From IMG/VR virus record IMGVR_UViG_3300028805_000047: DNA of 64,000 bases. One strand, 5' to 3'. The translations under genes were made by a program, and so were the position numbers. Under the pieces are notes generated by a model that was given only the letters and a program-made list of their open reading frames with translations, ran no database searches and was not told the DNA's origin. The stretch comes from a virus (Duplodnaviria; Heunggongvirae; Uroviricota; Caudoviricetes). This document shows, piece after piece, positions 2,120-62,322 of this stretch (its first letter is position 1; each line of letters opens with the position of its first letter).

Positions 2120-3904
2120 ATGGAAAAAAGTAAGTATTTAGTTGAAAGTTTAAGCGAAAATGCTTGTAAGATAGATAAAAATCAAGATGTGATTTTTCTA
2201 GAAGGTGTTTTTACTAAGTTTGGTATAACGAATAAAAACAATCGTATCTATGATAGCAAAAACTTCATAGAAAAGATGAATAAGCTTCAACCAAAAATAG
2301 AATCAAAAGAATTACTTGGTGAGCTTGAACATCCTGATAATGTAAGATATGTATCTTATAAGAATGTTTCTCATATGGTTGAATCTTTGAAGTATGATGA
2401 AAAGACAGATACTGTTACAGGACGAATTCGTCTTTTGAATACACCAAGTGGACGTATAGCAAGAACACTTGTTGAAAATGGTGTTCCTTTACATATATCC
2501 TCAAGAGCTATTGGTTCTATGAAAGGTAATCATGTTATTGTTGAAGAGTTAATAACATATGACTTAGTTGCTGAACCTGGTTTTGAACAAGCAATTTTAC
2601 ATACTGTAAATGAGTCAAGAGATGATAATCCTAAATTGAAAAATGCTTTGCATTATATGACATCAAAACAAAAACCAGGTGTATTTTGTGAGTCATTAAG
2701 TAGTAAAAATACAAAAGTATATTCAGTAAATGAAAATGAAATTCCAGATAATAAAAATATAAATAAAGAAACTTCATACGATATGAATACTATAGAAATT
2801 ACAGCAAAAGCTAAAGCCTTGGATTTAGCTGATAAATTTGGTTGTCAAGCTGAATTAGTAGAGTATACTAATGATGATGAAACAATAGCAGTCATGAAAA
2901 TTTCATCAGATGATAAAGAAAAACTATCAGATTTTGTAAGATATTGTCTTGTTAATGACTGTGAAGGTGAACCTAAAGAAGAAACTGAGCTTTCCATTGA
3001 AGAAGAATCAAGATCAGTAGAATTGTTACGTAGACAAATTGACGATTATACTCGTTATTTGAAAAAGTATAATGAGGGTTTTGTTACTAAAGAACAAATG
3101 GAAGCTTACAGTAAAATGATTTCAGAAAATGCTGTGACTAAAGGTCAATTAGAGGCTTACAGCAAAATGATTTCAGAAAATGCCGTAACTAAAGATCAGT
3201 TGGATGCATACAGTAAAATGATTTCAGAAAATGCTGTGACTAAAGACCAACTCGATGCTTACAGCAAAATGATTTCAGAAAATGCAGTAACTAAAGACCA
3301 ACTCGATGCTTACAGCAAAATGATTTCAGAAAATACCGTGACTAAAGATCAGTTGGATGCTTACAGTAAAACAATCATTGAATCAATGAATAAACAAACT
3401 GAAGCTCTTGACAGAACTTGCGAAGTTTATGAAAGCAGAATAAAAGAATTGGAATCACAAGTTCGTTCAATTAACGAAGGTGTTTCCAAGACTGAAAAAG
3501 ATGCTGAAATGAAACAAATATTTGAAGCTATTCAAAATATTAAAAATGTTACTGAAACACAGCAACAAATTAATGAACAGCGTCAAATTGAAGAAACAGA
3601 AAATAACAAGATTAAATCTGAACAATATCTAGTTAACTTTATGCCTGACAGATATAAAGAATCTTGGGAAAAACTTTCAGATGAAAGAAAGAAAGAAATT
3701 CTTAAAGAAAGCAGATTATTCTTGATTAAAGATGTTGCTACTGCTGAAAGATTCTGGATGACTCGTGATTTTAGAGAAAAACCGATTGACACTAAAAAAT
3801 TCATTGAAGAATCTTTGAAGTCAAGCAACAAAAACATACGTACTGATGACGTTCAAGATAATATCAAGAACGAAATTATGAGACGTATGAAATACGGATT
3901 TTAA
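2120..3904 (+). CDS. Prohead protease (T4 gp21-like) fused to a scaffold-like coiled-coil domain carrying six 17-aa tandem repeats
   Basis: N-terminal ~200 aa carries 'IFLEGVF...NRIY...GELEHPD', with His71, His85 and Ser127-133 placed as in a herpesvirus/T4-type assemblin. The C-terminal part is charged coiled-coil containing YSKMISENAVTKDQLDA repeated 5-6 times; each repeat holds an I-x-E triplet, the T4 gp21 cleavage-site type. The gene sits directly upstream of the capsid gene. Confidence 0.55.
   Translation: MEKSKYLVESLSENACKIDKNQDVIFLEGVFTKFGITNKNNRIYDSKNFIEKMNKLQPKIESKELLGELEHPDNVRYVSYKNVSHMVESLKYDEKTDTVTGRIRLLNTPSGRIARTLVENGVPLHISSRAIGSMKGNHVIVEELITYDLVAEPGFEQAILHTVNESRDDNPKLKNALHYMTSKQKPGVFCESLSSKNTKVYSVNENEIPDNKNINKETSYDMNTIEITAKAKALDLADKFGCQAELVEYTNDDETIAVMKISSDDKEKLSDFVRYCLVNDCEGEPKEETELSIEEESRSVELLRRQIDDYTRYLKKYNEGFVTKEQMEAYSKMISENAVTKGQLEAYSKMISENAVTKDQLDAYSKMISENAVTKDQLDAYSKMISENAVTKDQLDAYSKMISENTVTKDQLDAYSKTIIESMNKQTEALDRTCEVYESRIKELESQVRSINEGVSKTEKDAEMKQIFEAIQNIKNVTETQQQINEQRQIEETENNKIKSEQYLVNFMPDRYKESWEKLSDERKKEILKESRLFLIKDVATAERFWMTRDFREKPIDTKKFIEESLKSSNKNIRTDDVQDNIKNEIMRRMKYGF
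3104..3380 (+). repeat. 51-nt tandem repeat (5 full copies plus a partial) inside the protease-scaffold gene
   Basis: Units 'gcttacagYaaaatgatttcagaaaatgcNgtRactaaagaYcaRYtNgaK' are directly visible with few synonymous differences. Confidence 0.9.
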
Positions 3905-5702: not shown

Positions 5703-5744
5703 GAAAGTCCTGAGTAGATAAGTCTATTCAGGACTTTCTTTTTT
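5703..5744 (+). terminator. Rho-independent terminator after the capsid gene
   Basis: Perfect 11-bp stem GAAAGTCCTGA/TCAGGACTTTC with a 14-nt loop and a TTTTTT run. Confidence 0.85.
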
Positions 5745-5762
5745 ATAAAATTTTTCAAATTT

Positions 5763-5791
5763 TTGATCCAACTTTCAAAAAGCTGTATTAT
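5763..5791 (+). promoter_or_regulatory. Sigma70-type promoter TTGATC-N17-TATTAT (copy 1 of a conserved family)
   Basis: -35 TTGATC, exact 17-nt spacer, -10 TATTAT, with an AT-rich upstream tract. The same ~58-nt element recurs at 20170, 30083, 53625 and (diverged) 61119. Confidence 0.6.
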
Positions 5792-5837
5792 ATTTACCTC
5801 ATCAAATTAAGGTTAACTATTAAAATTAAGAGGTATT

Positions 5838-14194: not shown

Positions 14195-15201
14195 GAACTT
14201 GTATTGTTAATGAGTTATGTGATTACCAAGGTTATTATGAGAATTTTGGTAGAGTTGGGACTGAACCAATAGTACTTAGAGAACAACTTAAGATTGATGA
14301 TATTGTAGGACCTAAAAGAGGGTTTAATGATATTGATAGTTATAAATCGTATAACGAAGTAGATGTAAATGATTATGATAAAGTTTATGTCTATGGCAGT
14401 AATGATATTTACTACAATAATGAAATTGGTAAGACGAGATTTGATGCAAGGAAATTTTGGACAAAAGCAAAGAATGTTATTTTTCTGTCATTAAATAATT
14501 TGTATCTTCCAAAGAATTGGTTTGACAATATCAAAAGCCTAAAAGAATATATAACTGAAGAATTTGATTTTAATGAAATCAAACCGTCAGATTCAACCAA
14601 GTATACGCTTATAACTCCATTCGAGTTGTCAGATTATATAAAACAGCAATTAGGAATGGATGAATACCATAAAATAAATTTAGCTGAATCAGCAATATTA
14701 TATAGGAACAGAAGACTTGATTTATCATTCACTTCGTGTAAGTATGATTTATTTTATGACAGTAATTTTAATGAAGAAGATTTAAAATCCGTAAGAGGAT
14801 ATTTGGATTTTAGCAATAATAATCTTGTCGTTACAAGAAATACTGTGAATAAGTATATATACACATATACAAAGATAAAACAGGAACCAACAGAAAACAT
14901 GCAAAGGTATTTAGAAAGACTAAGTGTAAGTTTTGCGACAATTATATTTGACAATGAAGTAAACATACAGCTTAAAGAAATACCTACAAAACTATATGAA
15001 GCTGCTTCACAATTTTGTTATGTTTTTTATACTGAAAAACTTTCATACTTAAATGAAATATTCAATAATGATAATCATTTAGTTACAGGTCCTGAAGATT
15101 TAGTTTCAAAGCTTAATCATTTACAATCTCTAAAAACAAAACAATACCAAGATATTATATATAAGCAGTATAAAACATTGTCAGGACGTTGTTTATTATA
15201 A
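14191..15201 (+). CDS. Hypothetical protein (336 aa)
   Basis: ORF tiling with start/stop overlap. Confidence 0.5.
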   Translation: MRTCIVNELCDYQGYYENFGRVGTEPIVLREQLKIDDIVGPKRGFNDIDSYKSYNEVDVNDYDKVYVYGSNDIYYNNEIGKTRFDARKFWTKAKNVIFLSLNNLYLPKNWFDNIKSLKEYITEEFDFNEIKPSDSTKYTLITPFELSDYIKQQLGMDEYHKINLAESAILYRNRRLDLSFTSCKYDLFYDSNFNEEDLKSVRGYLDFSNNNLVVTRNTVNKYIYTYTKIKQEPTENMQRYLERLSVSFATIIFDNEVNIQLKEIPTKLYEAASQFCYVFYTEKLSYLNEIFNNDNHLVTGPEDLVSKLNHLQSLKTKQYQDIIYKQYKTLSGRCLL

Positions 15202-15216
15202 TAAATTTATTTTAGG

Positions 15217-20099: not shown

Positions 20100-20169
20100 T
20101 GAGTTTATAGTTACATATTATTTATATTTTATATGAGCAATGAAAATTTTTTGAAAATTTTTCAAATTT

Positions 20170-20198
20170 TTGATCCAACTTATGAAAAGTTGTATTAT
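20170..20198 (+). promoter_or_regulatory. Sigma70-type promoter TTGATC-N17-TATTAT (copy 2)
   Basis: Same conserved element as at 5763. Confidence 0.6.
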
Positions 20199-20236
20199 AT
20201 TTACCTCAACAAATTATTATTAACAATTAAATTAAA

Positions 20237-20344
20237 ATGACGATGGGAAAACAAATTAAAACAGTAAAGCCAGTAAAGGAAACATTGGGTTGTCCAGAAG
20301 ATTTTCAAGGTTATCAAAGATTATTGAATGCCTTATTAAAGTAA
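20237..20344 (+). CDS. Small ORF (35 aa, MTMGKQIKTVKPVKETLGCPEDFQGYQRLLNALLK), not in the supplied track
   Basis: Starts about 38 nt after the -10 of the conserved promoter, the same spacing as the genes downstream of the other promoter copies. Confidence 0.35.
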   Translation: MTMGKQIKTVKPVKETLGCPEDFQGYQRLLNALLK

Positions 20345-20375: not shown

Positions 20376-20948
20376 ATGTTACCGTCAACTTATTTACAAC
20401 GAGAAGTTTATCATTCAAAGAAGTTTTCAAATGATAAAGATGATTTAAGAAAGTATTATCCTTTATTAAGTAAGGAGGCTTTCAAGTTCTCAAAGAAATT
20501 TCCACTTATTCCATTCGACGATTTATTTGGATATGGATTATTTGGATTGGTAAAGGCACATCGCAAATTTCAGGGAGAAGAAAATGCACGTTTGCCATAT
20601 TATATGTTAATGATTGATGGTGAAATTCAACATGGCATTTTTTGTGTGGAAACACAGTTTGTACATCAGACAATAAACAAAATTAAAGATAGAGCAGCAA
20701 TTCAACCTGTCGGGATTTTGAATGCATCTCATTTTACAAATGAATCTGATGACAGAATGGTAACTGTTGAAAATATCTTAAATTCTGAAAACAATCTTTC
20801 TCCTATCGAGGACATTATAGTCCGTAAGGAGTTAAAGTTTACAAATATCAAAGCAATTGATATATGCGAACAATTTAAAATTAACAGAAAACAATACAAA
20901 GAAATTCTAGCATCGGCAATCGAGAAAATTAAATTATGTGTAATTTAA
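20376..20948 (+). CDS. Phage sigma factor (sigma70-family region 2 plus a region-4-like HTH); candidate late sigma in the T4 gene-55 position
   Basis: 'DLFGYGLFGLVKAHRKFQGEEN' resembles sigma70 region 2.2 ('GLIGLMKAVEKFD'). C-terminal 'KAIDICEQFKINRKQYKEILASAIEKIK' is HTH-like. 190 aa, located just after the gp47-like gene as gene 55 is in T4. Confidence 0.5.
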   Translation: MLPSTYLQREVYHSKKFSNDKDDLRKYYPLLSKEAFKFSKKFPLIPFDDLFGYGLFGLVKAHRKFQGEENARLPYYMLMIDGEIQHGIFCVETQFVHQTINKIKDRAAIQPVGILNASHFTNESDDRMVTVENILNSENNLSPIEDIIVRKELKFTNIKAIDICEQFKINRKQYKEILASAIEKIKLCVI

Positions 20949-22454: not shown

Positions 22455-23264
22455 ATGAAGAAATTCAAAAATAATTTTAAAATTTTTGAAATGAAAGTAG
22501 ATTTATTTCATGGTGATTGTATTGATATAATAAAAACTTTAATAAATGACAATATTAAAGTTGATGCTATTATTACAGATCCTCCATATGGTACTACAAA
22601 ATGTTCATGGGATTCTATTATTCCTTTAGAAACTTTATGGACACTTTTGAATCAAATTAGGAAAGATACAACACCAATATTATTGTTTGGACAAGAACCA
22701 TTTAGTTCCAAATTACGATTGTCAAATATATCAGAATACAGGTATGATATATATTGGGAGAAGGAACGAGCAACTAATATATTTCAAGTAAAGAAGAGAC
22801 CAGCAAAAGTTATTGAAAATGTATCAGTTTTTTACAAGAAACAACCTGTTTATAATCCTCAGATGACTATATATAATGGTAAAAGAAGATCAAACAAAAT
22901 AAAATATGGAAAATTAGGTGAACTTGTTGACTCAAATAATAAGAAACCATTTGAGTATAAAGACAATGGCTTACGCTATCCATTACAGGTTGTCAAGTTT
23001 GGTCGAGATATTTTGAAATCTAATTTACATCCAACTCAGAAGCCATTAGCTTTAATGGAATATTTAGTTAAGACATTTACAAATGAAGGAGATACTGTTC
23101 TTGATTTTACAATGGGTAGTGGAACAACAGGAGTTGCTTGTTTACATACAAATCGTTGTTTTATAGGAATAGAGAAAGATGAGAAATATTTCAATATTGC
23201 AAAAAGTAGAATAGAGAATGAACAGAAAGAAATAAAATTATTTAATTATGAAAACAAATTATGA
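22455..23264 (+). CDS. DNA methyltransferase, beta-class amino-MTase (DPPY motif IV before motif I); N6-adenine more likely than N4-cytosine
   Basis: 'AIITDPPYGTT' near the N-terminus and AdoMet motif 'LDFTMGSGTTGVAC' near the C-terminus. Confidence 0.75.
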   Translation: MKKFKNNFKIFEMKVDLFHGDCIDIIKTLINDNIKVDAIITDPPYGTTKCSWDSIIPLETLWTLLNQIRKDTTPILLFGQEPFSSKLRLSNISEYRYDIYWEKERATNIFQVKKRPAKVIENVSVFYKKQPVYNPQMTIYNGKRRSNKIKYGKLGELVDSNNKKPFEYKDNGLRYPLQVVKFGRDILKSNLHPTQKPLALMEYLVKTFTNEGDTVLDFTMGSGTTGVACLHTNRCFIGIEKDEKYFNIAKSRIENEQKEIKLFNYENKL

Positions 23265-25121: not shown

Positions 25122-25490
25122 ATGGAAAATTTACAAACATTTAAAGGTTTCATTAATGAAGCTTCATCAATGAATAATGAAAATAATATAGAATTTGAAA
25201 GAGAGTACTGCAGTAAGGATGAAAAATTCAGATATCAGTTACTAAGCCGTATGCAGAGCGATTGCGAATACGCCCTTGGTAATGGCAGAATATATGGAAA
25301 TCATTTCTGGGCTGGTAACGAAAAAGAACAAATTCGTGATATGATGTCATTATGGTTGTCACTTAATGATAAGCCTGAATGGTTGTCACTTGATCAAATA
25401 AATAATTATTCAAAAGAAATGACAGGAAAATCACTTACTGAACTTGGATATGATTTTGAGGGCTTGAAAAAAGAATATAATCAAGTTTAA
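25122..25490 (+). CDS. Small protein carrying the N-terminal CTS-like module (MENLQTFKGFINEASS)
   Basis: Shares the N-terminal module with the DUF285-repeat proteins; TATAAATA box at about 25091. Confidence 0.5.
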   Translation: MENLQTFKGFINEASSMNNENNIEFEREYCSKDEKFRYQLLSRMQSDCEYALGNGRIYGNHFWAGNEKEQIRDMMSLWLSLNDKPEWLSLDQINNYSKEMTGKSLTELGYDFEGLKKEYNQV

Positions 25491-25516
25491 AACAATTTTT
25501 ATCTAAAATACTTCAA

Positions 25517-25554
25517 AACAACCCTGTCAGAAACGTCAGGGTTGTTTTATTTTT
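25517..25554 (+). terminator. Rho-independent terminator (conserved hairpin AACAACCCTG...CAGGGTTGTT, copy 1)
   Basis: 10-bp stem, 10-nt loop, TTTTATTTTT tail. Confidence 0.85.
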
Positions 25555-25625
25555 AGGGATTAGCAACAATATTTCCATAAATGTTGTTTATTATATTTAC
25601 TTAATTAATATTAAAATTAACAGTT

Positions 25626-26692: not shown

Positions 26693-27956
26693 ATACTTTG
26701 ATATTCTAAATACTGTTAAACAAGCTATAAAGGGCAGCAGGTTTGAAGATAAGGTATATTCTGTCGGTGGATGTGAACGCGACAGGATATTAGGACGTCC
26801 TATTAAAGATATTGATTTTGCCGTAGAACTTCAAAATGGAGGTATAGACTTGGTGAAATTTTTATTTGAAAAAGATTACCTTGTCGGTGAACCTGTAATT
26901 TTTGAAAGATATGGAACTTGTAAGTTTTGTTTAAAAGATTTTCCTGAACATGATTTGGAGGCTGTTCAAACACGTAAGGAAAAATATACAGATTATAATT
27001 CAAGAAATCCTGAGACAGCTTTTGGAGAACTGAAGGATGATGCTATAAGGCGTGATCTTACAATAAACGCCATTTACAGAAATGTCTCGACTGATGAAAT
27101 TGTCGACATAACAGGAGGATTGGAAGATATTAAGAATAAGGTCATCAGAACTACATCGAATCCTGATTTTGTTTTTGATGATGATCCTTTACGGATATTA
27201 CGGGTTATCAGGTTTTCAACAGTACTTGGTTGGAAAATAAGTGATGATGTTTATGATTCCATAAAGAAGAATGCGGACAGATTGAGCATTATTTCACACG
27301 AAAGAATTATAGACGAGCTTGTAAAAATTCTGTCATCTGAAAATGCAAAATATGGATTTGAGCTTATTAACAGGACAAATTGCTTTTACAGGGTGTTCCA
27401 ATACATATATCCGGGTGTTGATTCAGAGAAAGAAAAATTGATTAAAAACTGTATAGAAGGTTCTGACTTGGTAAGTAATCTTGCAGCCGTATATGTCAAT
27501 ATATGCAGTTCAACCACTGCTAAAGAATGTATGAAGAACATGCATTTTGGAAATCATGTGATTTATGTAGTCGCAAGAATAATTGACAATGTTAATTATC
27601 TTATGGATTTGCCTGAAATATCTTGTGTTACGACAAGAAAAATGATGAGTAGGTTTGTAGACAAATATGACCAAATGCGGGCTGAACGTATAGCATTGAC
27701 AAAATTGCTTCATGAAGGCAATACTAAAATGTATAACAGAATATATAAGTATAGTCTGTCAAGTCATAAAGAGTTAAGGGATAAGACCTGGAATTATAAT
27801 AAGATACTGCCTGTAAATGGAGATGATATACGAAATACATTTAATGTAGAAGGCAGAAAAGTTGGGGAATATCTTAGAAAAGCTTCTGAACTTTATTATG
27901 AATTTCCAGATTCTGACAAAGACACATTATTGAATATGTTAAGTAAAAATGAATAA
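26679..27956 (+). CDS. tRNA nucleotidyltransferase (CCA-adding enzyme / poly(A) polymerase family, class II)
   Basis: Head-domain motifs 'VGGCERDRILGRPIKDIDFAV' (GG.vRD..LG..pkDiD) and 'RRDLTINAIY' (RRD.T.NA). Confidence 0.7.
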   Translation: MVVNEYFDILNTVKQAIKGSRFEDKVYSVGGCERDRILGRPIKDIDFAVELQNGGIDLVKFLFEKDYLVGEPVIFERYGTCKFCLKDFPEHDLEAVQTRKEKYTDYNSRNPETAFGELKDDAIRRDLTINAIYRNVSTDEIVDITGGLEDIKNKVIRTTSNPDFVFDDDPLRILRVIRFSTVLGWKISDDVYDSIKKNADRLSIISHERIIDELVKILSSENAKYGFELINRTNCFYRVFQYIYPGVDSEKEKLIKNCIEGSDLVSNLAAVYVNICSSTTAKECMKNMHFGNHVIYVVARIIDNVNYLMDLPEISCVTTRKMMSRFVDKYDQMRAERIALTKLLHEGNTKMYNRIYKYSLSSHKELRDKTWNYNKILPVNGDDIRNTFNVEGRKVGEYLRKASELYYEFPDSDKDTLLNMLSKNE

Positions 27957-27995
27957 TTATAAATATATCATAATAAAATAAACTTAAAAAAGATT

Positions 27996-28955
27996 ATGAA
28001 AAATTTACAGACTTTTAAGAGCTTCATCAATGAAGCTGCTTCAATAGAAAAAGGACCTGATGGAATGTATCATCCAAAAGATAGAGAGGGATTAGAAAGT
28101 ATTCTTAATCAGCTTATAAAAGAAAGAGGAAATGAGGGTGACTTCAATGATATTGATACGTCAGCAATTACTGATATGAATGGATTATTTTATCGTAATT
28201 GGGATTTTAATGGAAATATATCCAAATGGGATGTAAGCAATGTCACTAATATGCGTGGAATGTTTGAGTTTGCAACATCATTTAACCAACCTATTGGAAA
28301 TTGGAATGTTAGTAAAGTTACTGATATGAGTTCTATGTTTCAATGTGCCTATAATTTTAATCAAGATATATCCAGATGGAATGTAGGTAATGTTAAAAAT
28401 ATGGAAATGATGTTTACATGGACAACATCATTTAACCAACCTATTGGAAATTGGAATGTTAGTAAAGTTACTGATATGAGTCATATGTTTGAAAGAGCAG
28501 AATCATTTAATCAAGACATTTCAAAATGGAATACAGATAATATTACAAGTAAGGTGTATAGCATGTTTGAAAAATGTCCAATTAAGGATGAATATAAGTG
28601 CATATTTACAAAAATTAAAAATGAAATACCTGAAGATGATGACGATGATGAAGGTAGTATGAGTGATCAAGAACTTAAAGATTTATTTAGTAAGAAAGTA
28701 TATGGTGAAATGGAAGAGGATCCAGATCCAGTTGTTTTGAATGCAAAAACTGATGTATTTTGTGATGAGGGTGATATTGATTTTGATAAATGGATGGATA
28801 AACTAATTAGTACTGTTACGGACCGTTATGGAGATGATTTTACTGAAGAAGAGATGAAAAAAGCAGTTTATGCAGATAAAGAATTTTTAGACGATTTAAA
28901 AAGCGAGTATGAATCTTGTAAAGAAGCTTGTGAAGAAAATGATGAGGATTATTAA
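27996..28955 (+). CDS. CTS-module protein with DUF285/BspA-like ~26-residue repeats and an acidic C-terminus (319 aa)
   Basis: N-terminus 'MKNLQTFKSFINEAASIEKGPDGMYHPK...RGNEGDFNDIDTS', then repeats of the 'FNQPIGNWNVSKVTDMSxMF' type. TATAAATA box at about 27960. Confidence 0.6.
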   Translation: MKNLQTFKSFINEAASIEKGPDGMYHPKDREGLESILNQLIKERGNEGDFNDIDTSAITDMNGLFYRNWDFNGNISKWDVSNVTNMRGMFEFATSFNQPIGNWNVSKVTDMSSMFQCAYNFNQDISRWNVGNVKNMEMMFTWTTSFNQPIGNWNVSKVTDMSHMFERAESFNQDISKWNTDNITSKVYSMFEKCPIKDEYKCIFTKIKNEIPEDDDDDEGSMSDQELKDLFSKKVYGEMEEDPDPVVLNAKTDVFCDEGDIDFDKWMDKLISTVTDRYGDDFTEEEMKKAVYADKEFLDDLKSEYESCKEACEENDEDY

Positions 28956-28984
28956 AAATAATTCTTATCTAAAAATACTTCAAA

Positions 28985-29021
28985 AACAACCCTGTCAGAA
29001 ACGTCAGGGTTGTTTTATTTT
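28985..29021 (+). terminator. Rho-independent terminator (conserved hairpin, copy 2)
   Basis: AACAACCCTG/CAGGGTTGTT stem with a T-run. Confidence 0.85.
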
Positions 29022-29140
29022 AAAATAATTTGAAACGATATGTAAAAATATTGTTTATTATATTTACTTCAACAAATTAAATAACAGCATTAAACAAATA
29101 GTTATAAATATATTATAATATAAGTTAAACCTAAAAGATT

Positions 29141-29977
29141 ATGGAAAATTTAAAAACTTTCAAAAGTTTCATCAATGAAGCAGCTTCAATAGAAAAGAGT
29201 CAAGACGGAATGTATCATCCAAAAGATAAAGAGGAATTAGAAAGTATTCTCAATAAGCTTATAAAAGAAAGAGGTAATGAAGGTGACTTCAATGATATTG
29301 ATACATCAGCAGTTACTGATATGTCAGAGTTATTTTGGCATAAAACACTTTTTAATGGTGATATTTCTAAATGGAATACTAGTAATGTTACTAATATGGC
29401 TAATATGTTTGAGATGGCAAGATCTTTCAATCAACCTATTGGTAATTGGGACGTAAGCAGTGTTACAGACATGCATGAAATGTTTTTGCAAGCACAAAAA
29501 TTTAATCAAGACATTTCTAAATGGGATGTAAGTTTTGTAAGAAATATGGATGGTTTATTTTGTCTTGCAGAATCTTTCAATCAACCTATAGGTAATTGGA
29601 ACACAAGTAAAGTGACTAACATGGAAAGAATGTTTAATGGAGCAATTTCTTTTAATCAATCTATTGGAAATTGGAATACTAGTAATGTTACTAATATGGC
29701 TTCTATGTTTCATAATGCAAAAGCTTTTAACCAACCTATTGAAGGTTGGGATGTTAGCAATGTTACTAAAATGAATGATATGTTTTCAGGTACTGATTCT
29801 TTCAATCAAAACATATCTAAATGGGATACAAGTAAAGTTGTTAGTATGGTAGGTATGTTTTTGCGAGCAAAAGCTTTTAACCAAGATATCTCTAATTGGA
29901 ATGTAAAAGAAGTTAAAGATTCTGAAGATATATTTTATAATTGTCCAATCAAAGAAGAATTTAAGCCAAGATTTTAA
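29141..29977 (+). CDS. CTS-module protein with DUF285/BspA-like repeats (278 aa)
   Basis: 'MENLKTFKSFINEAASIEKSQDGMYHPK...' followed by about eight 'FNQ.I..W[DN][TV]S.V..M..MF' repeats. 'ttataaatatat' late box about 40 nt upstream. Confidence 0.6.
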   Translation: MENLKTFKSFINEAASIEKSQDGMYHPKDKEELESILNKLIKERGNEGDFNDIDTSAVTDMSELFWHKTLFNGDISKWNTSNVTNMANMFEMARSFNQPIGNWDVSSVTDMHEMFLQAQKFNQDISKWDVSFVRNMDGLFCLAESFNQPIGNWNTSKVTNMERMFNGAISFNQSIGNWNTSNVTNMASMFHNAKAFNQPIEGWDVSNVTKMNDMFSGTDSFNQNISKWDTSKVVSMVGMFLRAKAFNQDISNWNVKEVKDSEDIFYNCPIKEEFKPRF

Positions 29978-30016
29978 AGAGTAAAATTAAAAAAATTCTT
30001 ATCTAAAATACTTTGT

Positions 30017-30055
30017 AAAACAACCCTGACATTTCTGACAGGGTTGTTTTATTTT
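30017..30055 (+). terminator. Rho-independent terminator (conserved hairpin, copy 3)
   Basis: 12-bp stem AAAACAACCCTG/CAGGGTTGTTTT with a T-run. Confidence 0.85.
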
Positions 30056-30082
30056 AAAATAATTTAAAAATTTTTCAAATTT

Positions 30083-30111
30083 TTGATCCAACTTTCAAAA
30101 AGTCATATTAT
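30083..30111 (+). promoter_or_regulatory. Sigma70-type promoter TTGATC-N17-TATTAT (copy 3)
   Basis: Same conserved element. Confidence 0.6.
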
Positions 30112-30154
30112 ATTTACCTCATCAAATTAGTATTAACGATTAAAATTAAGGATT

Positions 30155-30442
30155 ATGACAGATATAACACAAGAGTCAGTCTTTAAAAAATTTATAAAAT
30201 TTTCTGACGAGTTTCCAAGAGAAAATGAAGAGATAGTATTCATTGAAAAGATGCACAGCAATTTGCATCTTACAATATGTGCATATTATGTTGAAAGATC
30301 AAAGAAAGATTTTGAAGAGTGCTACATATATTCAAACAATTACCAGAATACATTTTCTACAGACAAGACCGAATTAAGATTAGGTGATTTCTATTGGATG
30401 TATGCGAAAGACTTTAAGGAAAATTTAAGTAAAATGTTTTAA
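30155..30442 (+). CDS. Hypothetical protein (95 aa)
   Basis: SD 'aaggat'; downstream of the conserved promoter. Confidence 0.5.
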   Translation: MTDITQESVFKKFIKFSDEFPRENEEIVFIEKMHSNLHLTICAYYVERSKKDFEECYIYSNNYQNTFSTDKTELRLGDFYWMYAKDFKENLSKMF

Positions 30443-31544: not shown

Positions 31545-31610
31545 TTTTAAATTTCTGTAAAAACATTGTTTATTATATTTACTTAATTATTAATTTTAAA
31601 CTTAACAAAA

Positions 31611-32492: not shown

Positions 32493-32535
32493 ATAAATAA
32501 TAAATATATTGTTGAACGTTAAAATATTTTAAGTT

Positions 32536-33390
32536 ATGCCAATACGAAAAGTACACGGTGGATATAAATTCGGCAAGGTCGGAAAAGTATATCGAACAAA
32601 GAAAAAAGCTGAAAAGCAGATGAGAGCAATGTATGCAAATGGTCTTGCTGAAGAAACCAAGGATCTTCCAACATTTAAAAATTTTATTAATGAATCTGAA
32701 GATGTTTCAAAATCATTTGAAGAACTTAAATCAGGTGACAAGCTTTATAGATGTAAACTTTATTTTGATTCTAATCACAATAAAGATTTAGGTATTCCTG
32801 ATTCTATAAAAGTTTGGACAATGACTGTTAGTATGGTAGGCTATTTTAATAATGAATTTCAAATAAGTTATGCATATGACACAGACAACTTTAAAGAAGC
32901 AATTAAAATACAAGATGCCTATGAAAGCTGTGATATGGAAGATGATAGTTCATTTATTGCAACTAGCATTGATGCATTGGTAAAAGGTGTTTCAAAAGTA
33001 TTTGGCAATAAAGTTGGTTCTAAAGTCTTAGTCAGTGCTAAAGATTCAGATACCGGTAATTCTAACACATTTGCAAGTCTTTCAACTGGTGATAAGTTTT
33101 ATGTATGGAAAGCAAATGACAGAGAGTACATATATGAATATACTTTTCAAGACATTGAAAAGGACAGATATGATGAGGTTTCTATAGTAGGCATTAATAG
33201 TTTTACAGGTCATGAAACATTCCCTTTGTCACAAGAGGAATTTCATAAGTCAATAGTAAAGATTGACGCAAATGGTAAAGATGTTGATTTGGATAACTAC
33301 AAAATTAGTGATTTAAAAACATTGATTTGTGTCGATAAAAATGAAATCCTTGATATTCTCAGAGCTTCTGAAAGCGATATTGTAAAATAA
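32536..33390 (+). CDS. Protein with a conserved 47-aa basic N-terminal module followed by an internal CTS-like motif (284 aa); paralog of 52369..53127
   Basis: 'MPIRKVHGGYKFGKVGKVYRTKKKAEKQMRAMYANGLAEETKDLPTFKNFINESED' is nearly identical over the first ~50 aa to the ORF at 52369, and the upstream ~30 nt are identical as well. Confidence 0.55.
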   Translation: MPIRKVHGGYKFGKVGKVYRTKKKAEKQMRAMYANGLAEETKDLPTFKNFINESEDVSKSFEELKSGDKLYRCKLYFDSNHNKDLGIPDSIKVWTMTVSMVGYFNNEFQISYAYDTDNFKEAIKIQDAYESCDMEDDSSFIATSIDALVKGVSKVFGNKVGSKVLVSAKDSDTGNSNTFASLSTGDKFYVWKANDREYIYEYTFQDIEKDRYDEVSIVGINSFTGHETFPLSQEEFHKSIVKIDANGKDVDLDNYKISDLKTLICVDKNEILDILRASESDIVK

Positions 33391-43568: not shown

Positions 43569-44822
43569 ATGCAATATGTATATAGATTCATATTAAACAC
43601 AGATGTTTCTACTAAAGATACTTTAGTAGAGATGTGTTCTGTGTCAAAATGTCTATATAATCAAGCATTATATGAAATAAAGCAAACACTTAAAAAAGAA
43701 AACAAATTCTTATTTTATCAAGATTTAGAAAAAATAATGAAGACCAAAACTAATCTTGAAGGTAATATCAACTATCGTCTGCTAAAAGCCCAAGTATCAC
43801 AGCAGAATCTAAAAACACTTGATAAATCTATAAAGAGTTATTTAAATTCCCTTAAAGAATATAAAATACATCCTGAAAAATTCACTGGTAAACCTGAACT
43901 GCCAAATTGGAATAAAGGGAAGTATAGACAGCTTATTTTCACAAACCAGTCTGCTGTAATAAAAAATGGTAATATCTTTGTAAGTAAAACTATAAAATTT
44001 TCCATACCACAATACGACAGGTATAAAGATTTGATTTCAAATTTCAATCAAATAAGGATATTGCCAAAAAGAAGGGGAACGGCATTAGAATGCGAGATAG
44101 TCTATGAAATACCAGAAATGCATTTTGATTTAGACTATGAACGTTATGCATCAATAGATTTCGGTGTAGACAATTTAGTAACATTTGTCAACGATTATTC
44201 GAATCCGGTGATTTATTCAGGGAAACAAATTAAATCAATAAACCAATATTTTAATAAAAGACTTGCAAAGTTAAACAGTTCACTCAAGAAATGTCAAGAT
44301 ACATACACAAGTAAACAAAAAACAAATCTATATGAAAAGAGAGAAAGACGCATTAACGACATTTTCCATAAAGTAAGCAAACATATTGTAGATGAATTAG
44401 TAAAGCGTAATGTAGGAAATTTAGTTGTAGGTTATAATAGCGGATGGAAAGACTCCATCAACCTTGGAAACAAGAACAACCAGACTTTTGTTCAAATACC
44501 TTATGCAAAACTTGTTAAATATCTAAAATATAAATGCGAATCTTGCGGAATTTATTTTATAAAACATGAAGAAAGTTATACATCAAAATGTGACAGCATT
44601 GCATTAGAAAAGATTGGTAAACATGAAAAATATTCAGGGAAACGTATAAAACGAGGCCTTTTCCAATCAGCATCAAATAAGTTGATAAATGCTGACGTGA
44701 ATGGTGCAATGAACATCATGAGAAAAGTAGTTGATGATTCTTACGCAAGTATGATAATCAATAGTGGTAGGCTGTTCCTACCATTAAAGTTTAATAATCT
44801 TTACGATTTGAAAACTTTATAA
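43569..44822 (+). CDS. tnpB: TnpB-family protein (OrfB_IS605/Cas12-ancestor fold), likely nuclease-inactive
   Basis: RuvC-I 'SIDFGVDNL' and RuvC-III 'NADVNGAMNI' are present. The RuvC-II position reads 'NLVVGYNSGW' with no Glu, and the zinc finger keeps only 1 of 4 Cys ('YTSKCDSIA...GLFQSASNK'). Confidence 0.75.
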   Translation: MQYVYRFILNTDVSTKDTLVEMCSVSKCLYNQALYEIKQTLKKENKFLFYQDLEKIMKTKTNLEGNINYRLLKAQVSQQNLKTLDKSIKSYLNSLKEYKIHPEKFTGKPELPNWNKGKYRQLIFTNQSAVIKNGNIFVSKTIKFSIPQYDRYKDLISNFNQIRILPKRRGTALECEIVYEIPEMHFDLDYERYASIDFGVDNLVTFVNDYSNPVIYSGKQIKSINQYFNKRLAKLNSSLKKCQDTYTSKQKTNLYEKRERRINDIFHKVSKHIVDELVKRNVGNLVVGYNSGWKDSINLGNKNNQTFVQIPYAKLVKYLKYKCESCGIYFIKHEESYTSKCDSIALEKIGKHEKYSGKRIKRGLFQSASNKLINADVNGAMNIMRKVVDDSYASMIINSGRLFLPLKFNNLYDLKTL

Positions 44823-44940
44823 ACAAAATTTTATACTTTATTATAAAATTTATAAATTTTGGAACATGAAGACAACAGATAGTATTCAAGAGCGTAAGAA
44901 AGGCGGTTGGTGGAATTCAATACTTATCAAATAACATTCA

Positions 44941-52321: not shown

Positions 52322-52368
52322 CATAAATATATCGTATAAATTGTTGAACATTTAAAATATTTTAAGTT

Positions 52369-53127
52369 ATGCCAATACGAAAAGTACATGGAGGATATAA
52401 ATTCGGCAAGGTCGGAAAAGTATATCGAACAAAGAAAAAAGCTGAAAAACAAATGCGAGCAATGTATGCACATGGATTAGCTGAAGAGACCAAGGACCTG
52501 CCGACATTCAGTGCCGTAATAAATGAAGAAATTAATCCGCAAGTAGTAAATCATTCTTGGCAAGTATCTGATTTTATGAGAGGTGCTGAGCAAATTGATA
52601 AAAGTTTAACCGATTTGGTTGATAGTTTCTTGAATAATTTTGTCAATAAAATTTTTACATATTACTCACAGCAGGCTGATTTAAATGACAGTGATAAAAT
52701 TATAACGCCAATTGTCATAAGCCTTAATTCAGTAAGTTCTAAAAAACAATCAAAACCATTTGAAATCGTCATCGATTCAAATTATGAAGAACCATTATTA
52801 AATGATGGAAAGTACGGCCTTAGTGAAAAAACACGGTTTGTAAAAATAGATCAAGAAGATGATTATAAAACACTAGTCGGTAATATAATCTATTCTGATA
52901 GTGCGACAATGGAAACACTTGGTAAATTTTACTTTAATAAATTTTCACTCGGCCAGTCTTTTGTAATATCTATTAGAAATGAAGAAGGTGAAGGAACTCA
53001 ATATGCAAAACAGGCATTTGATTCAGGATGTAATGCAAATAATGGCATTATAGAATTTACTTTGAACAATTATCCTGATTTTGCTGAACTTGCTAATAAG
53101 TTTATAAATTCATTGAATACGTTATAA
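52369..53127 (+). CDS. Paralog of 32536..33390: conserved basic 47-aa N-terminal module with a divergent C-terminus (252 aa)
   Basis: 'MPIRKVHGGYKFGKVGKVYRTKKKAEKQMRAMYAHGLAEETKDLPTF...'. About 170 nt including the upstream leader are ~90% identical to 32505..32680. Confidence 0.55.
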   Translation: MPIRKVHGGYKFGKVGKVYRTKKKAEKQMRAMYAHGLAEETKDLPTFSAVINEEINPQVVNHSWQVSDFMRGAEQIDKSLTDLVDSFLNNFVNKIFTYYSQQADLNDSDKIITPIVISLNSVSSKKQSKPFEIVIDSNYEEPLLNDGKYGLSEKTRFVKIDQEDDYKTLVGNIIYSDSATMETLGKFYFNKFSLGQSFVISIRNEEGEGTQYAKQAFDSGCNANNGIIEFTLNNYPDFAELANKFINSLNTL

Positions 53128-53131
53128 TACT

Positions 53132-53521
53132 ATGGAAAATTTAAAAACTTTCAACAGCTTCATCAATGAAGCAGCTTCACTCGAAAAGGGACCTGATGGA
53201 ATGTATCATCCTAAATACAAGTTTGAGCTTAAAGCTCTTATGGAACAGTTGATAAAGAAAAGAGGTAATAGAGGTGATTTCAATGATATTGATACATCAA
53301 CCATTACTGATATGAGTGAATTATTTAAGTATAATAAAGAATTTAATGGAGATATTTCTAAATGGAATACAAGCAATGTCAAAGTCATGAAAGATATGTT
53401 CTTTAAAGCAGAAAAGTTTAATAGAGACATATCTCAATGGGATACAAGTAAAGTCACTGACATGAGTAATATGTTTGATGATTGTCCAATAAAAGAGGAA
53501 TATAAACCAAAATTCAAATAA
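53132..53521 (+). CDS. Short CTS-module protein with two or three DUF285-like repeats (129 aa)
   Basis: 'MENLKTFNSFINEAASLEKGPDGMYHPK...GDFNDIDTS...NGDISKWNTSNVKVMKDMF'. Confidence 0.55.
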   Translation: MENLKTFNSFINEAASLEKGPDGMYHPKYKFELKALMEQLIKKRGNRGDFNDIDTSTITDMSELFKYNKEFNGDISKWNTSNVKVMKDMFFKAEKFNRDISQWDTSKVTDMSNMFDDCPIKEEYKPKFK

Positions 53522-53560
53522 TAAGTAGGATTAAAAAATTCTTATCTAAAATACTTCAAA

Positions 53561-53597
53561 AACAACCCTGTCAGAAATGTCAGGGTTATTTTATTTT
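53561..53597 (+). terminator. Rho-independent terminator (conserved hairpin, copy 4, one mismatch)
   Basis: AACAACCCTG...CAGGGTTATT stem with a T-run. Confidence 0.8.
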
Positions 53598-53624
53598 AAA
53601 ATAATTTGAAAATTTTTCAAAATT

Positions 53625-53653
53625 TTGATCCAACTTTCAAAAATCTGTATTAT
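53625..53653 (+). promoter_or_regulatory. Sigma70-type promoter TTGATC-N17-TATTAT (copy 4)
   Basis: Same conserved element. Confidence 0.6.
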
Positions 53654-53690
53654 ATTTACCTCAACAAATTAACATTAAAACAATGAGGAT

Positions 53691-54122
53691 ATGAATACAA
53701 TTTATGTAATGAAGGACAAAGAATATTCAAGAGAAGAAGTTCTTGAGTCTTGGAACAGGGTGATAGCAGCTGTTGACAAATACTACAGCAAGGCTAAGAA
53801 AGTCTGTAGCTGGGATAACAAGTACAGTTTCTTTCGAGAATTCATTTTTCCTAAGACAAAGCTCTGGACATTTGATATTCTTAACAAAGCTGTTTTTAAT
53901 AAATTAAGAAGTTATGACACTCCGTTTCTAAGGCTTTCAAATGGATACATGCTTGACGGATTCGGACGTAATGTAACATATTTCAAGTTGGGAGAAAACG
54001 GATCGTGTTATTTCGATGATTTGGAAGGTAATAAAAGATATGGTATCGAATGTACACGATTCCTAAACGGTAATACAAGAGTAAGAATTTTTATCAGTGA
54101 ACAATTAAATATTAACAATTAA
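53691..54122 (+). CDS. Hypothetical protein (143 aa)
   Basis: SD 'gagga'; downstream of the conserved promoter. Confidence 0.5.
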   Translation: MNTIYVMKDKEYSREEVLESWNRVIAAVDKYYSKAKKVCSWDNKYSFFREFIFPKTKLWTFDILNKAVFNKLRSYDTPFLRLSNGYMLDGFGRNVTYFKLGENGSCYFDDLEGNKRYGIECTRFLNGNTRVRIFISEQLNINN

Positions 54123-54133
54123 AATTAAGGATT

Positions 54134-54673
54134 ATGAGAGAGGAAATTACAGAAAAGCTTGTGATCGTAAAGACTCCTAAAAAGATCACAATGTATGTTG
54201 CTGAAGATGGTACAAAATTTCAGGACAAGCAAGACTGCATATGTTATGAATTAAAGCCAAAATGGAATAATTGGCTTGAAAAGTTCGATGTGAAGGAAAT
54301 TGAATCCGAAAATTCTTCAACAGATACAATTGCATTTATGTATCATAAGGAATATGACAGTGAAATCCGGGAGTTCCTAAAAGCATATTCAAAATATTAT
54401 AAGTATGCCAAGGATGGTAAAATTTACCCTCGGTATCTAGGTAATCTTACAATAAGTGTATTAGGACATGTCGAAAATGAGATTAATAAAAAGGAATTTA
54501 TCGATAAGGAAATATACAAGTTTAATGTATATTATGATGAAGGAGATATTGACTATGAATATGGTACCTATGAGGTGGAATTTTTAGGTTGGGAAGAGGA
54601 GTCCTCAAAACTTCATGAGAAAATACAAGAACTTGAAAAAATATTTGGAAAGAAATTTATTATTAACAATTAA
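54134..54673 (+). CDS. Hypothetical protein (179 aa)
   Basis: SD 'aaggat'. Confidence 0.5.
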   Translation: MREEITEKLVIVKTPKKITMYVAEDGTKFQDKQDCICYELKPKWNNWLEKFDVKEIESENSSTDTIAFMYHKEYDSEIREFLKAYSKYYKYAKDGKIYPRYLGNLTISVLGHVENEINKKEFIDKEIYKFNVYYDEGDIDYEYGTYEVEFLGWEEESSKLHEKIQELEKIFGKKFIINN

Positions 54674-54685
54674 AATTAAACAGTT

Positions 54686-56424: not shown

Positions 56425-57648
56425 ATGACAAAAATAAACTCAAAAATTATCCGTCTCGACGGCGAAATAGTCGAGTCAGCTGATGTTGTTGAAAATTTAA
56501 TAAATGCGTTTGAAGATTCTGACGCAATGTCTCAGGATATTGACGATTTACATTCAGAAGCAATTTTAACAATTCTGACACATATTAAATCATCTGATGT
56601 TGATGACAGCTATGATTTGGAATTTAGAGAATTGAAAATAACTGATATTGATTTTCCAAGCCTTAACTTGTTTTATGACAAAGCTGCATATGTTATATTA
56701 AAAACTGTAAAGACGGTATTTAAAGATGTCGTTACAATTCTTGATGCACAGCATGAGTTATTTTCACAGACATTCTATGTTCCTGAACAAATGTTTTTCA
56801 CGGCATTGAATACAAAAATGAATGTCGATATGGCATATGAACAAGATTCTGTATCTGAATCATTCTTGAATAAAGTTTATTTGACAGGTACGGAATTGAG
56901 ATACTGTGACGAGTTCGCTCTTGAATCGAAAGAAGACAGAGAAGTAATCCACAATGTAATGCACAAAAATGATGTTGCATTGTATAAGTCAAATAAAAAG
57001 GTATTTGAAGCACTTTCAAAAATGTTCAACGTTGTAAAAACAGAAAACAAGAACATCTTTAAGTTATACCATAAACCACAAGGTTCTTCTGAATATGAAA
57101 ACCTCGGTGTACGTGTACGTTGTTCAAACAGACTGCTTGCATCTGTTGACACTTTCAAAATGAAATCTGAAAGTTCTATTCTTGAACTTAACAGAGAATC
57201 AAATGAAAGCTTGAATAATTATTATAAGACTAAAATAAACCAATTGCTTAAAGAAGAGAAGAAAGCGACAATCAACATCCCTAAGAATTGTCAATCTTTG
57301 ATTCTTGAATTCCTTCCAGTTCTTTGCACGCCTGAAACTGTAAATCAATGCGAGTTGACAACAACAGGAGTTGATACGCCGAAAATGGAAATCAAGTGTA
57401 ATGAAGAATTGCCTCAGGAACTTCAAAATAAGGTAAAAGACGCTATTGACAAAGCAAAATCAATCTACAATTCAAATGAGAGTGCTAAGAAAATTGTTAC
57501 GATGTACTATCAGATTAAAGAACTTTTGAAAGGTCTTACAGAAGATCAAGTTCGTAAAATGTCTCCTTTTGAACAGGATGAGATGATTTGGAATCTTTTA
57601 GCTATTAAGAATTCAAGTCAAAATAATGAAGAAGGCATGGTAGGTTAA
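56425..57648 (+). CDS. Hypothetical protein (407 aa)
   Basis: ORF tiling; followed by a terminator. Confidence 0.5.
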   Translation: MTKINSKIIRLDGEIVESADVVENLINAFEDSDAMSQDIDDLHSEAILTILTHIKSSDVDDSYDLEFRELKITDIDFPSLNLFYDKAAYVILKTVKTVFKDVVTILDAQHELFSQTFYVPEQMFFTALNTKMNVDMAYEQDSVSESFLNKVYLTGTELRYCDEFALESKEDREVIHNVMHKNDVALYKSNKKVFEALSKMFNVVKTENKNIFKLYHKPQGSSEYENLGVRVRCSNRLLASVDTFKMKSESSILELNRESNESLNNYYKTKINQLLKEEKKATINIPKNCQSLILEFLPVLCTPETVNQCELTTTGVDTPKMEIKCNEELPQELQNKVKDAIDKAKSIYNSNESAKKIVTMYYQIKELLKGLTEDQVRKMSPFEQDEMIWNLLAIKNSSQNNEEGMVG

Positions 57649-57673
57649 TTTATAGCCTACCATTCTTTATTTT
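57637..57673 (+). terminator. Rho-independent terminator overlapping the stop codon
   Basis: ATGGTAGG/CCTACCAT 8-bp stem, 11-nt loop, TCTTTATTTT tail. Confidence 0.7.
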
Positions 57674-57762
57674 CAGCATTTCGTTGTTTCTTATATAAGG
57701 AGTTTATTTAAGCTCCTATAATTGAAATTACACACTATAAAATACTAAACGGAACTAATAGT

Positions 57763-61097: not shown

Positions 61098-61118
61098 TTT
61101 GAAAATTTTCTAATGATT

Positions 61119-61147
61119 TTAATTCAACTTTCAAAAACTTGTATTAT
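61119..61147 (+). promoter_or_regulatory. Diverged copy of the conserved promoter element (TTAATT-N17-TATTAT)
   Basis: Spacer and -10 are conserved, -35 is degenerate. Followed by a TATAAATA-like box ('ttataaatatatcat') at about 61185. Confidence 0.4.
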
Positions 61148-61229
61148 ATTTACCTTAACAAATTAAATAACAGAGTTAAACAAATAATTATAAATATATC
61201 ATAATATAAGTTAAGCCTTAAAAAAGATT

Positions 61230-62157: not shown

Positions 62158-62262
62158 ATGAAAAGTAGTTGATGAGTCTTACATAGGTGAGATAGTCAAT
62201 AGAGGCTGGTTGTTCCAGCCGGTAAAGTTTAGAAATCTGTATCAAATTCCTAAACTTTATAA
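62158..62262 (+). ncRNA. Candidate small structured RNA (about 100 nt) downstream of the sigma70-like promoter
   Basis: Hairpins GGCTGG-ttgtt-CCAGCC and AAAGTTTAG-17 nt-CTAAACTTT. No coding potential. A 3' U-tract is not clean. Confidence 0.25.
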
Positions 62263-62322
62263 ATAAATTCGTATAATTGGTAATAATTTTAATAGGATTT
62301 AGAACATTTTAATATAAAAATT

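Follow-up and report, generated by a model that had tools for sequence, protein, structure and literature searches.

The 64,000-nucleotide (nt) stretch of DNA described here (the window; IMG/VR record IMGVR_UViG_3300028805_000047; 30% guanine plus cytosine) belongs to an uncultured, T4-related phage of ~255 kb, and its intergenic regions carry dispersed repeats of three main types, a long promoter-leader module, a short promoter and a terminator hairpin, which are probably the phage's own transcription punctuation, assembled from a few reusable modules in the manner of promoter-early stem-loop (PeSL) elements and acting also as recombination handles. The window encodes a tail sheath, an S77 prohead protease, a gp23-type capsid protein, UvsX/RecA, topoisomerase II subunits and a DnaB-like helicase, together with a DNA methylase, ATP-grasp enzymes and TnpB, and elsewhere in the genome a DNA polymerase B and a UvsW-like helicase are found; gp23, the S77 protease, the sheath, UvsX, topoisomerase II and the TATAAATA late promoters characterize the genome housing the modules, on gene content, as that of a T4-type myophage. 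Six paralogous genes (25122-25490, 27996-28955, 29141-29977, 53132-53521, 61230-62072 and 62323-63282) have the N-terminus MENLKTFKSFINEA(A/S)S; their cargo consists of DUF285 repeats in five cases and LPD11 in one, and most are provided with a TATAAATA late promoter. In the capsid-targeting sequence (CTS) of T4 the prohead protease cleaves after a glutamate, and the MENLKTFKSFINEA leader presumably resembles this sequence.

The long module extends over ~95 nt (consensus AAAAATTTTTCAAAATTTTGATCCAACTTTCAAAAAGnnGTATTATATTTACCTCAACAAATTAATATTAACATTAAAATTAAnGGAnATG) and is made up of phased A/T tracts, a TTGATCCAAC box, a conserved spacer, the core TATTATATTTAC and an A/U-rich leader that reaches the start codon; the phased repeats are AAAATTTT, present twice 10 nt apart, and TTTCAAAA, present twice 20 nt apart. 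Each copy is co-oriented with the downstream gene and terminates at its ATG, the distance between core and ATG being 37-52 nt with the type-1 leader and ~85 nt with the type-2 leader, and folding of the leader, with minimum free energies of 0 to -3.6 kcal/mol and z-scores of at least -0.2, revealed no RNA structure. Five copies lie in the window and at least nine in another part of the same genome; those in the window are the following.

5743..5836, + strand: long module copy 1, up to the ATG at 5838 of a gene of 187 amino acids (aa) with no assigned function; nhmmer E-value 1.3e-21
20148..20243, + strand: long module copy 2, at a divergent junction; heads a 35-aa open reading frame (ORF), the sigma-like 190-aa gene, the DNA methylase and others
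30062..30158, + strand: long module copy 3; heads an operon of 95-, 213-, 75- and 71-aa genes with no assigned function
53604..53693, + strand: long module copy 4; heads small genes with no assigned function (143, 179, 82, 185 aa and more)
61098..61229, + strand: diverged long promoter with type-2 leader; TTAATTCAAC replaces TTGATCCAAC, no hairpin, TATAAATA at 61189; ends at the CTS-DUF285 gene 61230

The genes downstream of the long modules are thus small ORFs, to which neither Pfam nor PHROG comparison assigned a function, a sigma-region-2-like protein and the DNA methylase. Outside the window the 5' edge of the module often holds the TAA stop of the upstream gene, with no terminator between the two. 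An inverted repeat in the spacer, CAACTTT..AAAGTTG, was dismissed as an element, having variable positions inside and not being conserved among the copies. The 3' half of the type-1 leader, ATTAACnATTAAAATTAA, is often followed by GGA or GAGG (5812-5829, 30132-30149, 54111-54128 and 54662-54679); it is also found in front of promoterless genes inside operons (7 matches vs 0.5 expected) and accounts for three of the four Shine-Dalgarno-like sites of the window, which suggests a reusable translation-start element. The 190-aa protein (20376-20948) is encoded by the first sizeable gene past the long promoter at 20193 and weakly resembles sigma-factor region 2 (PHROG 351, E-value 2.5e-4; FliA structure 1rp3, E-value 0.012); it may be a gp55-like late sigma factor.

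The terminator module comprises a 3' box, a 12-base-pair (bp) stem with one mismatch near the apex, TTTTATTTT and AAAATAATTTGAAA. Its four copies each stand directly after a CTS-family gene (DUF285/LPD11), even where the C-terminal coding sequences are unrelated, and fold at -13.6 to -19.8 kcal/mol (z-scores -3.9 to -6.4), the hairpin being followed by TTTTATTTT; the 3' box reads TTCTTATCTAAAATACTT in the copies at 29996 and 53539 and TTTTTATCTAAAATACTT in copy 1. A fifth hairpin, behind the major capsid gene, shows no homology to the repeated one.

5703..5744, + strand: unique intrinsic-terminator hairpin, 16-bp stem with T6 tail, directly after the major capsid gene; -24.5 kcal/mol, z-score -7.3
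25487..25567, + strand: terminator copy 1, with 3' box TTTTTATCTAAAATACTT, hairpin 25517-25546 and T-run, after the CTS-LPD11 gene; family D9
28955..29035, + strand: terminator copy 2, after the CTS-DUF285 gene 27996-28955
29989..30069, + strand: terminator copy 3, with the hairpin apex 30019-30048 inverted with respect to the other three copies
53531..53611, + strand: terminator copy 4, behind the truncated CTS-DUF285 gene 53132-53521; stem weaker owing to a G-to-A change; -13.6 kcal/mol

All these hairpins are predicted in silico to act as transcription terminators, on the basis of energies of -13.6 to -24.5 kcal/mol, z-scores of -3.9 to -7.3 and T-runs. A consensus terminator scan of 20-32 kb returned zero terminators, though folding shows the family hairpins clearly, presumably because of the mismatch near the apex, and Rfam gave no match over the window.

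The short promoter TTGTTTATTATAT, whose core is common to the long module, occurs in ~10 copies, all on the + strand, and precedes the UvsW-like helicase, the gene before the DNA polymerase, topoisomerase subunits or genes of that region, and others. Its representatives in the window are listed below.

15189..15216, + strand: short-type variant TTGTTTATTATAA, upstream of gene 15217, beside topoisomerase genes
25568..25625, + strand: short-type promoter TTGTTTATTATATTTAC and leader, ending at the ATG 25626; family D15
29035..29140, + strand: hybrid of short-type promoter and type-2 leader, with TATAAATA at 29103, ending at the ATG of the CTS-DUF285 gene 29141; families D13, D15 and D16
31550..31610, + strand: short-type promoter, upstream of the Band_7/lipoprotein gene 31611; family D15
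57684..57762, + strand: short-type variant TTGTTTCTTATAT, upstream of the GyrB-like topoisomerase subunit 57763

The motif TATAAATA is the third signal: 19 of its 23 sites lie within 120 nt upstream of a start on the same strand, including those of the capsid, the protease and five CTS genes, and the site upstream of the capsid gene is conserved in the same place in a relative, so that by position the motif appears to mark T4-type late promoters. It also accompanies the type-2 leader when the latter stands alone.

27947..27995, + strand: type-2 leader with TATAAATA (27958) alone, upstream of the CTS-DUF285 gene 27996; family D16

Judged from their arrangement, the long, short and TATAAATA classes together form a putative T4-style multi-class promoter layout.

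The modules are joined in different combinations, which can be read in 5' to 3' order at each site.

Sites 29989 and 53531: family hairpin, long promoter, type-1 leader
Site 28955: family hairpin, short promoter, type-2 leader
Site 25487: family hairpin, then an unrelated linker, short promoter and its own short leader of neither type
Site 61098: no hairpin, diverged long promoter, type-2 leader
Site 5703: unique hairpin, long promoter, type-1 leader

Composites of a hairpin with the long module are therefore found at 5703-5836, 29989-30158, 53531-53693 and one site elsewhere in the genome, the other nine of 13 canonical modules having none, and composites of the terminator hairpin with the short promoter at 25487-25625 and 28955-29140. 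The first-pass annotation had described a cassette of ~140 nt uniting terminator and promoter; this holds for the full composite of family hairpin and long promoter at 29989-30158 and 53531-53693 and nowhere else, the other sites being other combinations of modules. Likewise, in the interval 5703-5808 the repeat family is confined to 5743-5836, the hairpin at 5703-5738 being the different, unique terminator of the capsid gene, and the supposed terminator-only copy at 25517 is in fact followed by a short-type promoter at 25568-25610. The hairpin at 30019 differs from the others by seven mismatches in direct comparison and by one as reverse complement, and is best read as a palindrome inverted in place. 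The mosaic combinations and the inverted apex indicate recombination among the copies. In addition, two terminator modules bracket the gene 29141-29977, and elsewhere in the genome a 120-aa ORF has a long module immediately on either side; repeat-flanked layouts of this sort give rise to the mini-circles described for PeSLs, and repeats of 80-140 nt at ~90% identity suffice as substrates for T4-type recombination (PMC2839356). A role of the cassettes in gene shuffling is plausible; the expansion of the DUF285 family by that route, put forward in the first-pass annotation, is conjectural; actual recombination among the modules is what we infer from such sequence-level signs.

The repetition itself is well above chance. 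A repeat search of the window returns families D6, D9, D10, D13, D15 and D16 at these sites; a 39-nt promoter pattern has five matches at no more than three mismatches and the hairpin pattern three, against 0.00 expected from shuffled sequences in both cases, the fourth hairpin (30019) having been missed by the pattern because its apex is inverted. The core TATTATATTTAC has nine exact matches, all on the + strand, eight intergenic and one (49759) intragenic, shuffles with one mismatch allowed having given 2.28, and all 14 long and ~10 short copies are located on the coding strand. Every copy listed in the first-pass annotation was present where it had been placed, with repetition far above the shuffle expectation, and the diverged copy near 61100 was confirmed as a long promoter (nhmmer E-value 9.7e-14); the list was real and incomplete, since the short-type copies at 31550-31592, 15189 and 57684 had been missed. 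The claim that the repeats flank the CTS/DUF285 genes was only partly borne out: the hairpin is found at the 3' ends of the CTS family, but it is not tied to the promoter, the long promoters mostly head other genes, and the sole DUF285 gene flanked on both sides is 29141-29977.

In public pattern scans the sole other carrier of the long module was contig Ga0310691_10000194 (= IMGVR_UViG_3300031994_000035), which holds at least nine further copies and otherwise has almost no similarity to the window; no further carrier of the long module or the hairpin was found in these scans of viral, metagenome and genome collections, a pattern match in L005 (Ga0209119_1006982) being dismissed as due to chance. 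The contig was considered as a divergent relative, in which the module would be ~90% identical though only three proteins match (31-53%); this reading, which would have meant an extraordinary conservation of modules across phages, was rejected because genes of both sequences map to one contig. In particular, a single contig of 255,141 bp is matched by the DNA polymerase of Ga0310691_10000194 (P0023), the capsid protein of the window (P0001) and the 179-aa protein of the window (P0012), and the Logan run SRR9006654 contains both that polymerase and the window capsid protein; Ga0310691_10000194 thus represents a second portion of this ~255-kb genome, and the proteins that match weakly between the two parts are paralogues. 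The long module thus amounts to at least 14 copies across the ~120 kb sampled of one genome, with a promoter-core identity of ~90% both within and between the two parts and zero fixed differences between them. Three independent Logan assemblies and one JGI contig break within or beside modules, and short-read assembly ends of this phage (L013, L014, L015, L043-L045) fall 40-125 nt from the adjacent gene, in or beside modules; assemblies fragment at these sites because the modules are true repeats. In the same genome an array of 16 tRNA genes (L004 155-3209, contig ~33.2-36.2 kb) contains a diverged long-type promoter with the perfect box TATATTTG (L004 ~2164), and a canonical long module (L004 ~3288) directly follows the last tRNA.

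The relatives of the phage offer architecture rather than copies. The phage with 78% capsid identity (238.6 kb; 55% polymerase identity) is without the long module in 21.7 kb, and has its own cassette of hairpin and short-type promoter, which recurs after 884 nt so as to enclose two small ORFs immediately behind the capsid gene, as well as CTS-DUF285 genes and MEKLKTFKSFIKE versions of the leader (L029 20416, 21413); the relative with 68% capsid identity has a unique terminator and TTGTTGTTTTATATA after the capsid gene. In the comparison of gene content at the junctions that the first-pass annotation had proposed, the gene behind the capsid terminator-promoter differs in all three phages (68-78% capsid identity), at a distance at which breakpoints are not locatable. 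The 179-aa early-region protein recurs at 73-78% identity in other contigs, in which its neighbours and the order of small genes differ, and one of these (L036) has a four-copy promoter family, TTTGTATTATATTTGTAAAAACAAA (two exact, two diverged), all with TATATTTG, the perfect Bacteroidota -7 box. The modules therefore adjoin small genes with no assigned function in regions whose content differs among relatives, as in hyperplastic regions. Phages found through the topoisomerase (41-52% identity) contained, in loci of ~20 kb, neither the long module nor comparable repeats. As regards conservation in relatives, then, the long module is absent from them and they carry repeated terminator-promoter cassettes of their own: as far as these sequences indicate, architecture and core recur, and the long module appears lineage-specific. 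PeSL sets are likewise lineage-specific (PMC4122927).

The host is probably a member of the Bacteroidota, judging from the capsid relatives and the scarcity of Shine-Dalgarno sites. The closest GenBank phage capsids, at no more than 33% identity, are those of uncultured huge phages and of Tenacibaculum, Prevotella (Lak), Chryseobacterium, Flavobacterium and Sphingomonas phages, so that most capsid relatives with a named host infect Bacteroidota; a Shine-Dalgarno-like motif is present in just 4 of 73 window genes, which is the Bacteroidota pattern (PMC6847099). The TnpB protein, used as a query against bacterial genomes for the same purpose, gave no match. The related L036 scaffold appears to be derived from sheep rumen, and the phage would appear to have a rumen origin as well.

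The promoter had been called a textbook sigma-70 one. The sequence TTGATC-N17-TATTAT is present with ideal geometry, but it scores 9/12, occurs at chance frequency (80 found vs 73.2 expected) and belongs to a phage of a probable Bacteroidota host. The main sigma factor of Bacteroidota does not use the sigma-70 consensus, and the promoters of this phylum are characterized by -33 TTTG and -7 TAnnTTTG / TAHHTTTG boxes, the latter ~5 nt before the transcription start (PMC6847099). The core TATATTTA matches five of the six near-invariant -7 positions in all copies, G-5 being replaced by A in all, and canonical TAHHTTTG boxes are not enriched upstream of genes (7/72). The usual distance between TTTG and the -7 box in Bacteroidota is ~19-21 nt, shorter than the 23 nt found here. 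No 4-nt palindrome is more depleted than GATC (observed/expected 0.42 in both genome parts), which is nonetheless fixed in 13 of 14 long modules (TTGATCC, e.g., at 5763, 20170, 30083 and 53625); two N6_N4 DNA methylase genes are encoded, one in the window (22455-23264) and one in the other genome part (contig 57427-58176).

In the reading of the repeats as transcription punctuation, the long module would be the main promoter and translation-start unit of one temporal class, most likely the early one because it heads operons of small genes with no assigned function and the sigma-like factor; the short class is likely a second, middle-like one because it heads replication and other genes, and the late class would be transcribed from the TATAAATA promoters. 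Hairpin and T-run would end transcription of the CTS-tagged DUF285/LPD11 genes, and a terminator abutting a promoter module would generate an insulated terminator-promoter cassette. Since the modules measure 80-140 nt, are ~85-95% identical and coexist with a T4-type recombination apparatus (UvsX and the UvsW-like helicase), they would represent portable homology, able to sustain cassette exchange, gene conversion and unequal crossing-over in line with the proposal made for PeSLs. Several points weigh against this reading. A terminator-like stem-loop stands directly upstream of only 4 of 13 canonical long modules, so that composites are exceptional; none of the true relatives was found to carry the long module; the searched collections contained no close relative, and no insertion, deletion or replacement was mappable to a cassette edge; what looked like strain variants behind the capsid gene in the 78% relative was rejected, the DNA being 100% identical and differing in its gene calls alone; a clean fit is given neither by sigma-70 (9/12) nor by the Bacteroidota -33/-7 promoter, TTTG being placed 23 nt upstream of the -7 box; selection on function alone could explain the near-identity of the copies; and we infer promoter activity, strength and timing as well as the polymerase or sigma factor that reads the promoters.

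The simplest alternative is that these are ordinary promoters and terminators without any role in plasticity, in which purifying selection keeps the copies alike and the four hairpins are leftovers of the duplication of the CTS family. Every copy does occupy exactly the position expected of a promoter or terminator, all four hairpins follow paralogous genes with a common 5' end (repeat family D8), and no rearrangement is mappable to a module edge; conservation, however, extends over the spacer and ~35 nt of leader, which are not constrained in ordinary promoters, the modules are shuffled in their combinations with the same terminator behind unrelated C-terminal coding sequence, one hairpin is inverted in place, and T4-type recombination can make use of repeats that are 80-140 nt long and ~90% identical (PMC2839356); this explanation is unlikely. 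A near-invariance of ~50 nt would also be explained if the long module were read by a phage-specified factor, such as a sigma factor or activator, injected or made early, or a methylation-dependent switch, instead of the unmodified host holoenzyme. The ~90% identity of spacer and upstream region, the paired repeats TTTCAAAA and AAAATTTT, the invariance of GATC in 13 of 14 copies despite its genome-wide depletion (0.42), the sigma-like protein and two N6/N4 DNA methylases, and the lack of enrichment of the host-type TAHHTTTG upstream of genes (7/72) are in its favour. This proposal is nevertheless improbable, as the sigma-like match is weak (E-values 0.012 and 2.5e-4), the gene concerned is itself downstream of a long module, so that a first round of transcription needs the host enzyme, the core TATATTTA is near the Bacteroidota -7 box, of which a relative has the perfect form TATATTTG, and phasing of A/T tracts is typical of strong host promoters (PMC6847099).

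It is scarcely credible that the repeats are mobile or site-specific recombination elements, that is, miniature transposons or an integron-like attC 3' of each cargo gene. The dispersion of the copies and the location of the imperfect hairpin (one position mismatched) immediately 3' of cargo-like genes recall such elements, but terminal inverted repeats and target duplications are absent, the orientation with respect to the genes is fixed and the copies end at start codons, no integrase family was recognized among the ~50 of 73 window genes compared with Pfam or PHROGs, TnpB (43569-44822), the one transposase-like gene, has no relation to the modules, and Rfam finds no match in the window. In a comparison by eye, the hairpin arms do not fit the attC R''/R' consensus.

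Other repeated sequences of the window are distinct from the modules. The TnpB gene at 43569-44822 encodes OrfB_IS605 and Cas12f1-like TNB domains, and its 3' end with ~150 nt downstream (44722-44867) recurs at 62160-62307 with 73-78% identity between two CTS-DUF285 genes, where it may be a solo right end or an omega-RNA-like remnant. A 176-nt repeat with 88% identity (32519-32694 and 52352-52527) spans the upstream region and the 5' ends of the genes 32536-33390 and 52369-53127, a further dispersed paralogue pair, and the gene 2120-3904 (prohead protease/scaffold-like) contains six tandem repeats of 51 nt (17 aa) at 3031-3422.

The interpretation of the modules as transcription punctuation with recombination handles yields a map of promoters in three classes, long, short and TATAAATA, for an uncultured rumen phage lineage of ~255 kb, for which transcription data were not found; it carries the idea underlying PeSLs, that regulatory repeats can serve as handles for recombination, over to a distant branch of T4-related phages whose hosts are probably Bacteroidota, and provides compact candidate parts for Bacteroidota, namely a strong promoter, a leader and a terminator. 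A bolder and doubtful extension sees the long module as a portable, self-contained expression unit made up of bent upstream DNA, recognition box, core and translation leader, read or switched by a phage-specified factor or by GATC methylation, homogenized by frequent recombination and shuffling early genes in a probable Bacteroidota jumbo phage; if true, this would take PeSL-type systems beyond the phages of Proteobacteria for the first time, with a recognition logic other than that of sigma-70.

As to known systems, PeSLs, the promoter-early stem-loop cassettes of RB49/phi1, T4/PST and KVP40/nt-1 (Arbiol et al. 2010, PMC2839356; Comeau et al. 2014, PMC4122927), are the nearest. As in PeSLs, dispersed, conserved intergenic units with a lineage-specific consensus occur in a myophage with T4 core genes; they have strong promoter-like -35/N17/-10 geometry, an AT-rich region and a leader to the ATG, with an adjacent stem-loop terminator in some copies; their neighbours are small genes with no assigned function in regions variable among relatives; and the conserved copies per genome are many (here at least 14 long ones with a ~90% identical core, ~10 short ones and four hairpins). 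The resemblance put forward in the first-pass annotation thus survives for the co-oriented intergenic signals, the T4-type core genes, some composites and the small genes nearby, and does not for most long modules, which are not composite. In contrast to PeSLs, composites are here a minority and the conserved stem-loop is associated with the 3' end of a single gene family, not with the promoter; the module exceeds PeSLs in length and takes in a conserved translation-start region; the host is probably a member of the Bacteroidota, not a proteobacterium, which makes the sigma-70 identity doubtful; and the system is known from sequence alone, as against indel mapping and mini-circles for PeSLs.

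The short type, GTAAAA..TTGTTTATTATAT, recalls the promoter-middle stem-loops (PmSLs) of Vibrio phage nt-1 (PMC4122927) as a second class with a TATTAT-like -10 and a different upstream box, here upstream of replication genes; it differs in having no TGCTT Mot box and in being assigned to a class from downstream genes only, and MotA/AsiA homologues, which were not sought, did not turn up. The internal-protein (IP) locus of T4 (Repoila et al. 1994, as cited in PMC4122927) has in common with the CTS genes the N-terminal CTS-like leader, the conserved flanking regulatory sequence, the variable cargo (here DUF285 repeats or LPD11) and late plus earlier promoters, and is distinguished by its cargo families, cleavage and packaging being conjectural for the CTS proteins here. 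Promoters of the primary sigma factor of Bacteroidota are approached by the 5/6 match of TATATTTA, with a perfect TATATTTG in a relative, by phased AT-rich tracts and by genes without Shine-Dalgarno sites, and differ in the A in place of G-5 and in the wider TTTG spacing (23 nt). The PeSL/PmSL kind being already known, the modules are best explained as functionally analogous to it and not as a new kind of element.

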